64,000 bases of DNA from an uncultured virus (IMG/VR IMGVR_UViG_3300020325_000007) (Duplodnaviria; Heunggongvirae; Uroviricota; Caudoviricetes), in the IMG/VR virus record IMGVR_UViG_3300020325_000007. The stretch is one strand, 5' to 3'. Positions 29,262-35,700 of this stretch are shown here, one piece after another. The notes below the pieces were generated by a model. The model worked only from the letters and a program-made list of their open reading frames with translations, ran no database searches and had not been told where the DNA came from. Each line of letters begins with the position of its first letter. The first letter of the stretch is position 1. Position numbers and translations under genes: made by a program.

Positions 29262-32200
29262 ATGAGTTTGATACACGGATTACATAAAGATACCTTACTT
29301 GAAATCAACGGTAAACTTACTTCAATAAGTAATATATTAGTTGGTGATAAAGTCCAAGGTTACGATACACAGAATGGTGTCTACAGAGACAATAAAGTTG
29401 TTAGAGTTGTAACACAAGAAATAGATTCTCATTTAAAATTAAAACTTTCAGACGGAACTGAGTTAAAAACTTCCGTTGATATAAAAATATATAAAGATGG
29501 TGAATGGGTTTCACCAATCGGTAATACGTCATGCGCATCTGATGATTGTAAATGTTCTCATAAATCATTTTTCAATGACATAAAAGTTATTTCCGTAGAA
29601 TTAGTAGAAAAACCTATAGTAATTAGAAGTATAGAGGTAGAACCTGACCATAATTACTTTGTAGGTAATCTATTAGTACACAACACGGGTCCACAAGGTC
29701 CTAAAGGTCAAAAAGGACAAAAAGGTGCCTTAGGTCCAGCAGCATCGCCAGGTCCTCAAGGAGCACAGGGTGCTAAAGGTAGTACAGGTGGACAAGGTGG
29801 TACAGGTTCAACAGGTCCAAAAGGTCCAAAAGGTTCTACAGGTCCACAGGGAGCACAAGGTCCACAAGGTGCAACAGGACCAAAAGGTCCACAAGGTGCA
29901 ACAGGACCACAAGGTGCAACAGGACCACAGGGAGCAACAGGAGCAAAAGGTCCTAAAGGTTCCACAGGTGGGGCGGGTCCAAAAGGTCCAAAAGGTCCCA
30001 CAGGTGCAAAAGGTCCAAAAGGTAGTTTAGGTCCACAAGGTGCAAAAGGTCCAAAAGGTTCTACAGGTCCACAAGGTCCACAAGGTGATACAGGTCCTAC
30101 AGGTGCATCGTTAACAGGTCCACAAGGTGGAAAAGGTCAAAAAGGTGCAACAGGAGCATCACCAACAGGTCCACAAGGTCAAAAAGGTCAAAAAGGTGCA
30201 ACAGGTCCTCAAGGTTCAAGTCCTCAGGGTTCTAAAGGTCAAAAAGGTCAAAAAGGTGTAACAGGTCCTCAAGGTTCAAGTCCACAAGGTGCAACAGGTC
30301 CTCAAGGTGGAAAGGGTCAAAAAGGTGAAGTAGGAGCATCACCTCAGGGTGCAACAGGTGCACAAGGTGCAAAAGGTCCACAGGGTCCTCAAGGTCAAAA
30401 GGGTGCACAAGGTTCATCACCACAAGGTGCACAAGGTCCTACAGGAGCAACAGGTGCACAAGGTGCATCACCTCAGGGTGCTAAAGGTCAAAAAGGTCAA
30501 AAAGGTGCAACAGGTCCACAAGGTGCACAAGGTTCAAGTCCACAAGGTTCTAAAGGACAAAAAGGTGCAACAGGTCCACAAGGTGCACAGGGTGCAAGTC
30601 CTCAGGGAGCAAAAGGTAATACAGGTCCAGCAGGAGCAGTAGGTGCACAAGGTCCACAAGGTGCAAGTCCAAAAGGTCAAAAGGGTGCACAGGGTAGTAC
30701 AGGAGCACAAGGTCCTCAAGGTGCACAAGGTTCAAGTCCTCAGGGAGCAAAAGGTCCTAAGGGTCAAAAAGGTGCAGTAGGTCCTCAAGGTGCACAGGGT
30801 GCAAGTCCAACAGGTCCTAAAGGTCCACAGGGAGCGACAGGACCACAAGGAGCACAAGGTGCAAGTCCTAAAGGTCAAAAAGGTGAAGTAGGTCCTCAAG
30901 GTCCTCAAGGAGCACAGGGTTCATCACCACAAGGTGCAAAAGGTCCTCAAGGTTCTAAAGGACAAAAGGGTGAAGTAGGAGCATCACCAACAGGTCCACA
31001 GGGTGCACAAGGTGCAAAAGGTCCACAGGGTCCTGAAGGTCAAAAAGGTTCACAAGGTGCAAGTCCAAAAGGTTCTCAAGGTCCTACAGGAGCAACAGGA
31101 GCACAAGGTGCAAGTCCTCAAGGTGCAAAAGGTCCTAAAGGTCCACAAGGAGCACAAGGTCCACAAGGTGCACAAGGTGCAAGTCCTCAAGGTTCTAAAG
31201 GTCAAAAAGGTGCAACAGGTCCTCAGGGTGCACAGGGAGCATCACCTCAAGGAGCACAGGGTGCAAAAGGTGCACAAGGTCCTCAGGGTGAACAAGGTGC
31301 ACAAGGTGCAAGTCCTAAAGGTCAAAAAGGTCAAAAAGGTGAAGTAGGAGCACAAGGTCCACAAGGAGCACAAGGTTCAAGTCCTCAAGGTTCTAAAGGA
31401 CAAAAAGGTCAAAAAGGAGCGGTAGGTCCTCAAGGTGCACAAGGAGCATCTCCTCAGGGAGCACAAGGTCCTCAAGGTTCTAAAGGTCAAAAAGGTGAAA
31501 TAGGAGCACAAGGTGCAAGTCCAAAAGGTCAAAAAGGTGCACAAGGTGGTCAAGGGGCAACAGGAGCACAGGGTTCATCACCACAAGGTGCTAAAGGTCC
31601 ACAGGGGTCTAAAGGTCAAAAAGGTGAAATAGGAGCACAAGGTGCAAGTCCTAAAGGTCAAAAAGGTGAAGTAGGAGCACAAGGTCCTCAAGGTGCACAG
31701 GGTTCAAGTCCTAAAGGACAAAAAGGTGAAGTAGGAGCACAAGGTCCTCAAGGTGCACAGGGTTCAAGTCCTCAAGGTGACCGAGGTGCACAAGGAGCAA
31801 CAGGAGCACAAGGTCCTCAAGGTGCACAAGGTGCAAGTCCTCAAGGTGCAAAAGGTCCTAAGGGTCAAAAAGGTGAAATAGGAGCACAGGGTGCAAGTCC
31901 ACAAGGAGCACAAGGTCCTAAAGGTCCTCAGGGTGACCAAGGTGCACAAGGTAGTTCACCTCAAGGTTCAAAAGGTGAAAAAGGACAAAAAGGAGCACAA
32001 GGTCCAACAGGTGCACAGGGTGCAAGTCCACAAGGTGCAAAAGGTCAGAAAGGACAAAAAGGTGCATTAGGTGACCAAGGTGCACAGGGTGCAAGTCCAA
32101 AAGGTCAAAAAGGTGAATTAGGTCCTAAAGGTCAAAAAGGTGAAATAGGAGCACAAGGTGCAAGTCCTAAAGGTCAAAAAGGTGAAATAGGAGCACAGGG

Positions 32201-32706: not shown

Positions 32707-35700
32707 ATGTACGGTGGTTTCGTAACTTCTTCATTAGTCACAACCCAATTATCGGGTACAACAGACAATATAAATAACATTGGTTTAGGTTCTTCCTTAA
32801 TTGGTGTTAATATTAGTGGTTATGCTCAATCTTCAAATGAAGATTTTCCTTTAACATGGACAGGTCAATATTCGGGAAGTAATACATCTTGGTTAGAATT
32901 ATCTGAAGGAAATCAGGTAGTCAATCTTACAAATCCACAAATACAACAAACAATATATACTGTTGAAACCGATTCAGGTAGTTTATCAGTAGGTATAGAC
33001 CAACCCCTTTTAACAGCAGGATTAGAATATTCAGGTGGTGGAACATATTGGAATATCGCATTTAAAACAGTAGAAGATATATCACCAACAGGCGATTATT
33101 TAGTAAAATACAATTTCGATACAAATACATGGGAATATTGTTTAGTAACTAATGGTTGGATTGAAGCAGGACAATCTACGACAAAAGAATTAGACTTAGA
33201 ACCTTCTGATATGTACTTAGTCAATGGGTTCGTTGTTCACAACTTTAAAAACGGTGGTCTACCACCTGAAGGTAGTGGTTGTGGTGGTGGTGATGGTGAT
33301 TCCTCATTTGGTCCACAGGGTGCCAAGGGACAAAAAGGTCAAACAGGTGGTACGGGTTCATCAGGTGGTCAGGGTGCACAAGGTGCAACAGGTCAAGGTG
33401 GTACTACAGGACCAAAAGGATTTACTGGCTCATCAGGTGGTCAGGGTGACCAAGGGAACACAGGCCTTACAGGAAACAACGGTCCAACAGGACCAACAGG
33501 TCCTACGGGAGCACAAGGTCCTCAAGGTGCACAGGGTCCAACAGGAGCACAAGGTTCAACGGGTCCCGCAGGTGGTTTACCTTCAAGTGGTGCAACAGGT
33601 TCAACAGGTGATACAGGTAATACAGGTCCACAAGGTGACCAAGGTAGTCAAGGTTCAACAGGTGGAGCTGGTGACCAAGGTAGTCAGGGTCCAACAGGAG
33701 CACAAGGTTCAACAGGTTCACAACCTTCATCAGCACCAACAGGTGCAAAAGGTCAAAAAGGACAAAAAGGTGTATCAGGTGAGACAGGTCCACAGGGTGC
33801 TAAAGGACAAAAAGGTGAAACAGGTGCTACAGGTCCAGCAGGTCCTACGGGTCCACAAGGTGGAAAAGGTCAAAAAGGTGAAGTAGGACCAACAGGTCCA
33901 GCAGGTCCTACGGGAGCACAAGGTCCTCAAGGTGCAAAAGGTTCTAAAGGACAAAAAGGTGTTGCAGGTGAAACGGGTCCTCAAGGTCCTCAAGGTGCAA
34001 CAGGTGGAACAGGTGGTTCAGGTTCGCCAGGTGGAACAGGTAGTGCAGGTAATACAGGTTCTATAGGTAGTTCAGGTTTACAAGGTCCTACAGGTTCAGC
34101 AGGTGACACAGGTCCACAGGGTGCTAAAGGACAAAAAGGTCAAACAGGTGCTACAGGTCCAACAGGTAATGCAGGTGACACAGGTCCTCAAGGTGGAGCT
34201 GGTGATAAAGGTCAAAAAGGTGAAAGAGGTGCCGCAGGTGATACAGGTCCACAAGGTGCACAAGGTAGTAAAGGTGTAACGGGTTCAGCAGGTGGTACAG
34301 GTGCCGCAGGTTCAAAAGGACAAAAAGGTCATACAGGTTCAGGTGGTGGAACAGGTAATACAGGTTCTACAGGAGCAGCAGGTGCAAAAGGTTCAACAGG
34401 TCCACAAGGTGACCAAGGTCAAAAAGGTGTTCAAGGTGAAACAGGTTCAGCAGGTGCAAAAGGTTCAACAGGTCCACAAGGAGCACAAGGTGGAACAGGT
34501 GAAACAGGAGCGGCCGGAAATAAAGGACAAAAAGGACAAAAAGGAGCACAAGGTGCAACGGGTCCACAAGGAGCAGCGGGTGACCAAGGTGCAACGGGTG
34601 ACCAAGGTTCAAAAGGTCAAAAAGGTCAAAAAGGTGTAGCAGGTGAGACAGGTGCAACAGGTCCACAGGGTGCAACGGGTGATACAGGTGGTTCAGGTTC
34701 GCCAGGTGGTACAGGTAGCGCAGGTAATAAAGGTGTCATAGGTAGTTCAGGTCTACAAGGTCCTACAGGTTCAGCAGGTGATACAGGTCCACAAGGTGGA
34801 GCAGGTGACCAAGGTGCAAAAGGTAATCAAGGTTCAACGGGAGCAGCAGGTGACCAAGGTCCTCAAGGTGCAGCGGGTGATAAAGGTCAAAAAGGTGAAA
34901 GAGGTTCAGCAGGTGATACAGGTCCACAAGGTGCAACAGGTGATGTAGGTTCACAAGGTTCATCAGGTGGTACAGGTGCAGTTGGTAATAAAGGTCAAAA
35001 AGGTCACGGTGGTTCAGGTGGTGGAACAGGTAATACAGGTGCAACAGGTAATGCAGGTGACACAGGACCAAAAGGTCAAAAAGGTGAAGCAGGTCAAAAA
35101 GGTGTTCAAGGTGAAACAGGTTCAGCAGGTGATACAGGTCCTCAAGGTGCAACAGGTAACAAAGGTTCAAAGGGTGAATTAGGTACTTCAGGTGGAGCAG
35201 GTGCAACAGGTTCAACAGGTGATATAGGTAGTTCAGGTCATCAAGGTGCAACAGGTAATGCAGGTGACACGGGTGAAACAGGTGATACGGGTCAAAAAGG
35301 TACTAAAGGTGGACTTGGTGAAACAGGTGACGCAGGTAATAAAGGTTCAACGGGTGACCAAGGTGCAAAAGGTAATCAAGGTAACACAGGTGCAGTAGCT
35401 CCTAAAGGACAAAAAGGTGAATTAGGTGCAACGGGTAACCAAGGTTCGACAGGTGCAGCGGGTGATAAAGGATTAAAAGGTATAGTAGGTTCAGGTGGTG
35501 GAACAGGTAGTACAGGTGGAACAGGTGCAGCTGGTGCAAAGGGTTCAACAGGTGACCAAGGAGCAACAGGTGACCAAGGAGCGACAGGTGACGCAGGTGA
35601 TACAGGTGACGCAGGTGATACAGGTTTAAAAGGTGCAGTAGGTTCACAAGGTGGAGCAGGTGCAAAAGGTACTAAAGGTCAAAAAGGTCATGGTGGTTCA

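Follow-up and report, generated by a model that had tools for sequence, protein, structure and literature searches.

Why should two collagen-like proteins of a tailed virus begin, almost at their first residue, with Hint domains, and what could these domains do there? The question arises from the window analysed here, a stretch of 64,000 nucleotides of an uncultured Caudoviricetes virus (IMG/VR record IMGVR_UViG_3300020325_000007), in which two neighbouring genes encode the proteins that we call A and B. The initial annotation of this DNA proposed that the N-terminal Hint domains of both proteins serve C-terminal cleavage only. From the comparisons described here we think it fairly probable that both act as one-sided, self-removing caps, which cut the chain after their terminal Asn by cyclization of that residue, with the stronger case for A.

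The predicted fold of Hint A is clearly that of a Hint domain. Its AlphaFold2 model has a predicted local distance difference test score (pLDDT) of 84.7, the best structural matches are BIL2 (Z 17.9, root mean square deviation (rmsd) 2.0, 136 aligned residues) and 2lwy (Z 17.3), and in the structural alignment residues 6-141 correspond to intein residue 1 through the terminal Asn, with Gly6 at the position of Cys1. A profile of Hint A found BIL2 and gp41-1 in the PDB at E values of about 5-7e-8, and the Pfam family PT-HINT (PF07591) matched it with 23.2 bits (E 9e-5), below the gathering threshold of 27.7. Hint B is also predicted to adopt a Hint fold, by a model which is weaker than that of A (pLDDT 57.8). 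The top 32 of its 39 structural matches are Hint folds, the best with Z 12.5, rmsd 2.6 and 135 aligned residues, and model residue 5 corresponds to intein residue 2, which places Gly4 at the Cys1 position. Hint B aligns end to end with Hint A (hhalign E 1.2e-5), and a search with its profile brings up genuine Hint domains with Cys1. Searches of Pfam and PHROGs with Hint B gave no Hint family match, a sequence search of the PDB returned nothing convincing, hhalign against a PT-HINT profile built from two sequences fell short of significance (E 0.04-0.07) and an Atlas match (0.90, recognition 2088) was weak on the tool's own scale. Structure prediction nevertheless bears out the fold that had first been assigned to both domains.

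Which catalytic residues are left in these folds? Both domains had been described as ending in VHN, with Gly where Cys1 is expected and almost no N-extein, and all of this holds. Asn141 of A (29682-84) is followed by Thr and then at once by Gly-X-Y triplets, Asn179 of B (33241-43) is followed by Phe, with the collagen starting at residue 202, and the leaders comprise five residues in A and three in B, the Met included. The His of the block B motif TxxH had been reported as missing from both domains, and it is, although for A the motif had been placed one residue too early, at TSVD; alignment to gp41-1, BIL2 and the C. thermocellum bacterial intein-like (BIL) domain 2lwy gives S71-V-D-I74 as the equivalent. 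For B the register was right: GIDQ lies opposite TxxH, with Gln99 in place of the His.

The homologs of A share this pattern. Viral and metagenome contigs were searched by patterns, with the best 80 of 82 kept in one search; 130 matching frames gave 61 distinct complete Hint A sequences, including the window's own, after partial ones had been dropped, and these reach down to 40% pairwise identity. Position 1 is Gly in 44 of them and Ala in 17, and the block B His position holds Ala (25), Ser (21), Ile (14) or Val (1) and never His. His-Asn-Thr-Gly-Pro is present in all 61, and His140-Asn141-Thr142, like position 74, lay outside every search pattern used for A. The leader has five residues in 59 homologs and three in the other two. 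The window sequence and its closest relatives gave ratios of non-synonymous to synonymous substitution (dN/dS) of 0.20-0.25 for both Hint domains; only close pairs were used, since values for distant pairs, in which dS appears saturated, are unreliable. An insertion of about eight residues with three Cys (residues 91-98, window 29532-29555) occurs in 15 of the 61 Hint A homologs and is possibly a metal or disulfide loop.

B was followed in 27 distinct sequences, mostly recovered as neighbours of A, with position 1 scored in 26 and its register set by motif. The terminal Asn is present in all 27, preceded by His in 26 and by Arg in one; F13 is always Asp, and F4 is variable and never Asp or Cys. 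Position 1 is Ser in ten, Gly in nine and Ala in seven, Met alone precedes it in 18 of the 26, and the block B His is found in two of 26. Gly in place of Cys1 is thus true for the window's lineage of B, and across the family, as judged from these sequences, the residue is really any small one. The distances of A and of B are correlated over 25 loci (Mantel 0.5, 0/2000 permutations), which fits long co-inheritance. Among loci found through the downstream gene for a family 2 glycosyltransferase (GT2), many of them on redundant contigs that in part repeat earlier ones, 24 of the 25 collagen frames that have a stop codon upstream start with a Hint, and the 25th is a frameshift fragment. The A gene beside the Arg-Asn homolog of B (L151:1740, L195) has a tail like that of P0003, a distant A homolog with Ser at position 1. 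In one assembly (L007/L194) the B gene is frameshifted within the repeats, probably by an assembly error, and it is intact in L009. Three further sequences, P0041, P0050 and P0032, have a Hint followed by a Cys-rich domain and no collagen in the sequence at hand; the first two are N-terminal copies without Cys1 and the third is a fragment, and either a fragmentary state or a form free of collagen may explain them.

A natural control for what was lost, and where, comes from the wider subfamily. The listing comprised 150 of the 274 matches to a profile of B, and 149 of these were analysed, after a repeat match of 7311 residues had been omitted; 15 fragments were set aside. Among the matches listed, internal or C-terminal copies have Cys1 in 114 of 115 cases, the block B His in 110 and His-Asn in all 115, and the sole internal copy without Cys1 (P0125) is also without the block B His. 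In contrast, Cys1 is found in none of the 19 N-terminal copies listed, while His-Asn is present in all ten whose C-terminal end is reached. The block B His occurs in one of these 19 (P0154, apparently a truncated gene call), the column being gapped in five. F13 is Asp in 92 of the 101 internal copies that could be parsed, so B owes its F13 Asp to the wider subfamily, and the residue is no sign of decay. The comparison indicates that the front-end catalytic residues are lost where no upstream chain exists and that the back-end residues persist. The Cys1/TxxH/Asp-F13/His-Asn subfamily itself (P0021-P0159) is large and apparently unnamed, and its domains mostly stand towards the C-terminal end of proteins that resemble adhesins or fibres, some of which carry BACON, LamG or collagen. 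The tails after these Hints are very short, with Lys as the first residue in 37 of 115, and the Cys1 subfamily could perform BIL-type ligation of short peptides.

How might a domain with only its back end intact work? In the available text of PMC4031507, the reactions at the N-terminus are attributed to Thr B7, His B10 and F4, and Asn cyclization to His F13, His G6 and Asn G7; classes 2 and 3 and the BIL types are defined there as well. The initial annotation took it as established that Asn cyclization alone releases the downstream chain; this is so for C1A inteins (available text of PMC12245125 and PMC4031507) and is a prediction for A and B. For gp41-1, the available text of PMC12245125 states that N-cleavage is blocked in the C1A mutant and C-terminal cleavage occurs, that loss of the F4 Asp (D107G) accelerates C-cleavage about tenfold, and that His114 and His124 are termed active centres. 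Our model for A and B starts from the predicted Hint fold and the residue pattern, with no nucleophile at position 1, no block B His and His-Asn kept, the front-end chemistry having been lost, as the comparison of copies shows, where the Hint stands at the N-terminus. Asn cyclization, aided by His130 and His140 in A and by Asp168 and His178 in B, would then free the fibre, which would start with Thr-Gly-Pro in A or with a variable Cys-rich segment in B. We regard this release as quite likely for A and as somewhat more probable than its failure for B. Until cleavage, the cap would probably shield the free end of the rod or help it to fold, at the end opposite the conserved C-terminal anchor, and would be the mirror image of phage fibres which shed a C-terminal S74 chaperone.

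Could the Hints instead be catalytically silent, or only A cleave, so that they are retained on the mature fibre as globular heads and His-Asn is kept for the sake of the fold? Several observations weigh against cleavage. The +1 residue of the B homologs is Pro in 10 of 27, followed by Ala (6), Phe (6), Val (2), Asp (2) and Arg (1), and an improved gp41-1 mutant tolerates all +1 residues except Pro (available text of PMC12245125), which speaks against intein-type cleavage of the ordinary kind in these ten. One B lineage (L151/L195) ends in Arg-Asn, followed by Arg. In the wider subfamily 98 of the 115 internal copies listed have tails of 30 residues or fewer and yet keep His-Asn, and its conservation alone is thus no proof of cargo release. 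The block B His and the F4 Asp can matter for C-cleavage too: in the class 2 KlbA intein, mutation of either (His at B10) drastically cut it (available text of PMC4031507). In the model of Hint B, residues 1-77 are below a pLDDT of 50. Lastly, F4 is Ser and F13 is His in all 61 A homologs, and Ile4 and His5 are invariant, but the motifs around His5, Ser123 and His130 (and Ile4 as well) were within the search patterns, which makes this invariance partly circular. What speaks against silent domains is that Cys1 and the block B His have freely decayed in the leading copies whereas the Asn stayed in 27/27 B and 61/61 A sequences. Autocleavage between Asn and Pro also exists in other folds, in RsgI and reovirus mu1 (available text of PMC10328401), although no Hint example was found in the literature. 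On balance we consider silent domains unlikely. The original claim of cleavage at the C-terminal side only is well backed by conservation in A and is backed also by the positional contrast in the subfamily of B, although Pro at +1 counts against the ordinary reaction in the B homologs that have it.

Alternatively, Hint A might still perform an atypical splicing or ligation, in which Thr+1 (or Ser F4) attacks the His5-Gly6 bond and moves the leader onto the N-terminus of the collagen. The invariance of Thr+1 and Ser F4 in A and the conserved leader length would fit such a reaction, as would the Ser that P0003 carries at position 1 after a leader of seven residues, and in one Ser1 intein the block B His is dispensable (available text of PMC10189870). 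However, class 2 splicing requires Thr B7, His B10 and Asp F4 and class 3 requires Cys F4 (available text of PMC4031507), and of these residues His B10 is missing, as are Asp F4 and Cys F4; B has no +1 nucleophile and mostly no N-extein. We hold this reaction to be very improbable.

If the Hints are self-removing caps, what is the purpose of the cap? One special case of this reading is that the Hint is a trimerization chaperone: three Hints would associate and bring the chains of the triple helix into register, and cleavage would be triggered only once the trimer has formed, as in S74 intramolecular chaperones. Hint domains are generally monomeric, which counts against such a role, as does the variable segment of 22-104 residues between Hint B and its rod. 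For A the geometry is more favourable, since the rod begins one residue past the Asn in 61/61 homologs and the five-residue leader is conserved. Unrelated phage collagens bear a C-terminal S74 domain (2/2 tested), and S74-type domains chaperone trimer folding and then release themselves (available text of PMC8326128), an attractive parallel. Conserved C-terminal domains in A and B offer another way to the trimer, however, and E. coli prophage collagens do trimerize via a C-terminal domain (available text of PMC3368898). These domains of A and B have median identities of 0.54 and 0.51 and are homologous to one another (hhalign E 9e-5); that of A has no match in Pfam or PHROG. The initial annotation had read the Hints as a self-removing pro-domain or trimerization chaperone, in the manner of a procollagen propeptide; as trimer nucleator, a conserved C-terminal domain is just as good a candidate. 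Taken together, we find the chaperone role rather doubtful.

The arrangement of the two proteins suggests an inverted fibre, anchored or trimerized at its C-terminal end, whose distal tip would be covered by the Hint up to the time of cleavage. Directly after Hint B comes a variable, Cys-rich domain with a median identity of 0.28. It has 72-104 residues and 4-10 Cys in 23 of 26 sequences, and in the lineage of the window it has shrunk to 22-23 residues. The usual polarity is seen in other phage collagens, those near distant GT2 genes: their N-terminal segment is short, and the S74 domain, in both that were tested, is C-terminal. The rods themselves differ: in rod A breaks recur at intervals of 5-8 triplets, 38 of the 39 being insertions of two residues, and rod B is almost continuous. 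The interruption patterns are strongly different and leave an A/B heterotrimer unsupported, and the lengths of the A and B rods are not significantly matched (Spearman 0.55, p 0.08, n=11). A bolder version of the cap reading, which we offer as a speculation that is probably wrong in some part, is that the Hints moved from internal or C-terminal sites to the collagen N-terminus, and became one-way cleavage chaperones, which fold the distal end of the inverted fibre or set its register and, once shed, leave a hypervariable Cys-rich tip exposed, with B-type domains cutting even between Asn and Pro.

Do A and B belong to a known class? By fold both are members of the Hint superfamily, B on a model with a pLDDT of only 58. 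The Cys or Ser of class 1 inteins at position 1 is absent from A and B of the window, which have Gly, although Ser stands there in 10 of 26 B homologs with only Met before it; the Cys, Ser or Thr of this class at +1 is found in A (Thr in 61/61) and in none of the 27 B sequences. Neither domain has the Ser G6, Cys+1 and Asp F4 of the class 2 intein KlbA (Ala1, Ser G6, Cys+1, His B10, Asp F4), nor the Cys F4 of class 3, this residue being Ser in A and variable in B. The pattern is the opposite of type B BIL and Hedgehog Hint domains, which perform N-terminal cleavage and have no block G His-Asn. Closest are the type A BIL and PT-HINT domains (2lwy; Tetrahymena BIL2, 6tmm), which share the fold, a size of about 135 residues, the lack of an endonuclease and the terminal His-Asn (His and Asn in 61/61 A; His in 26/27 and Asn in 27/27 B). 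They cleave C-terminally by Asn cyclization, as predicted for A and B, and their +1 residue is variable, as it is in B. Unlike A and B, which stand at the extreme N-terminus of a phage collagen without Cys1 or block B His, they have a position-1 nucleophile and an internal site, and Cys occupies position 1, where the thioester would form, in no leading copy. Hint A stays below the PF07591 threshold and Hint B gives no match. PT-HINT sits C-terminally, directly before toxin domains (available text of PMC3482391), and the available descriptions of the BIL types and BIL2 (PMC7765530, PMC8616854) contain no N-terminal form without Cys1. Judged by their residues, A and B would work as the back half of a type A BIL does, but the missing position-1 nucleophile sets them apart from that group; cleavage after the Asn is likely.

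The residue pattern of A is also that of engineered inteins, gp41-1 C1A D107G, Mtu RecA D422G and Npu DnaE D118G, in which the position-1 nucleophile and the F4 Asp are removed and F13 His and His-Asn are kept (available text of PMC12245125). These are laboratory mutants which retain the block B His, whereas A and B are natural, conserved and without it, and B has Asp at F13. The closest sequence relatives of B, the Cys1-bearing Hint subfamily, share its F13 Asp and His-Asn but lie within proteins or at their C-terminus, have kept Cys1 and the block B His, and mostly end in a short tail after the Asn. Peptidase_S74 (PF13884), which occurs also on other phage collagens, resembles the caps in removing itself from one end of a virion-type fibre; it differs in its fold, its Ser-Lys dyad (described for the homologous MyRF domain), its C-terminal position and its proven role in trimerization, which for the Hints is conjectural. 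In procollagen, globular propeptides are cut from the collagen rod by separate proteases and the C-propeptide nucleates the trimer, so the analogy with the Hints is only loose. We found no report in the open-access literature of an N-terminal Cys1-less Hint on collagens or phage fibres, and this natural, conserved form would be a new one among type A BIL-like Hint domains.

The features of the two genes are collected in the table. The source of the window is a 121-kb virus record from marine metagenomes, 68% complete, and no additional Hint or collagen gene was found in this record. The major capsid proteins of Microcystis phage Mel-JY01 and Flavobacterium phage immuto are 57% and 54% identical to that of the record, and T4-like phages are more distant. 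In the annotations of Mel-JY01 and immuto, neither a collagen nor a Hint gene is listed in the region behind the major capsid gene; searches of GTDB genomes and GenBank phages found no relative, and word-index protein searches with full-length A and B gave no matches. Independent DNA contigs span both Hint regions with zero differences. RNA-library contigs cover genes A and B partially and at low depth, which permits no inference of transcription. The collagen genes are flanked by the capsid/PhoH block on one side and the head-tail adaptor on the other, with fibre-like genes upstream, and this position suggests that A and B are virion fibres. Two upstream genes (26512-29251) share a near-identical starting peptide (WKKV..SGS), kept across relatives, and Ser-Gly-Ser motifs recur in this region and at the collagen C-termini. 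Genes for a 2-oxoglutarate (2OG)-Fe(II) oxygenase, a GT2 and a GT4/OGFOD2-like fusion come immediately after the collagen genes. Lys is frequent at the Y position (87 of 292 triplets in rod A and 71 of 326 in rod B), which, together with these adjoining genes, suggests that the neighbouring enzymes may hydroxylate and glycosylate the collagen fibres.

Table. Positions of the collagen-like proteins A and B, their parts and the adjoining enzyme genes in the window.
Feature	Position	Strand	Remarks
Collagen-like fibre protein A, 1142 aa	29262..32690	+	Short leader, Hint, collagen rod, C-terminal domain
Leader of A, 5 residues including Met	29262..29276	+	Ends in Ile4-His5 (N-extein position)
Hint domain A, Gly6 to Asn141	29277..29684	+	Position 1 Gly6; block B Ser71/Ile74; F4 Ser123; F13 His130; His140-Asn141
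Thr142, +1 residue, predicted new N-terminus	29685..29687	+	Thr-Gly-Pro in 61/61 homologs
Collagen rod A	29688..32552	+	292 triplets, 39 short interruptions; Y position mainly Gln or Lys
C-terminal domain of A, about 45 residues, conserved	32553..32687	+	Candidate anchor or trimerization domain
Collagen-like fibre protein B, 1236 aa	32707..36417	+	
Hint domain B, Gly4 to Asn179	32716..33243	+	Gln99 at block B (no His); F13 Asp168; His178-Asn179; N-proximal insertion
Gly-rich linker of B, 22 residues	33244..33309	+	Variable Cys-rich domain of 72-104 residues here in most relatives
Collagen rod B	33310..36294	+	326 triplets, 5 interruptions
C-terminal domain of B, about 40 residues, conserved	36295..36414	+	
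2OG-Fe(II) oxygenase, GT2 glycosyltransferase, GT4/OGFOD2-like fusion	36469..40068	+	Downstream context; possible fibre-modifying enzymes

What would these caps mean for the phages that carry them and for the Hint family? If the cleavage is real, evolution has reached the cleavage-only design of engineered traceless tags, and phage fibres have an extra maturation route. The B family accepts quite different residues at +1, namely Pro, Ala, Phe, Val, Asp and Arg, and if active it could cut before Pro, beyond what the best engineered intein can do. The one-way chaperone reading, if true, would give the S74 chaperone its N-terminal equivalent in the Hint, which would at the same time be a traceless cleavage tag made by nature. 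Lastly, the paired set of internal copies with Cys1 and N-terminal copies without it makes the uncoupling of the two Hint half-reactions testable.

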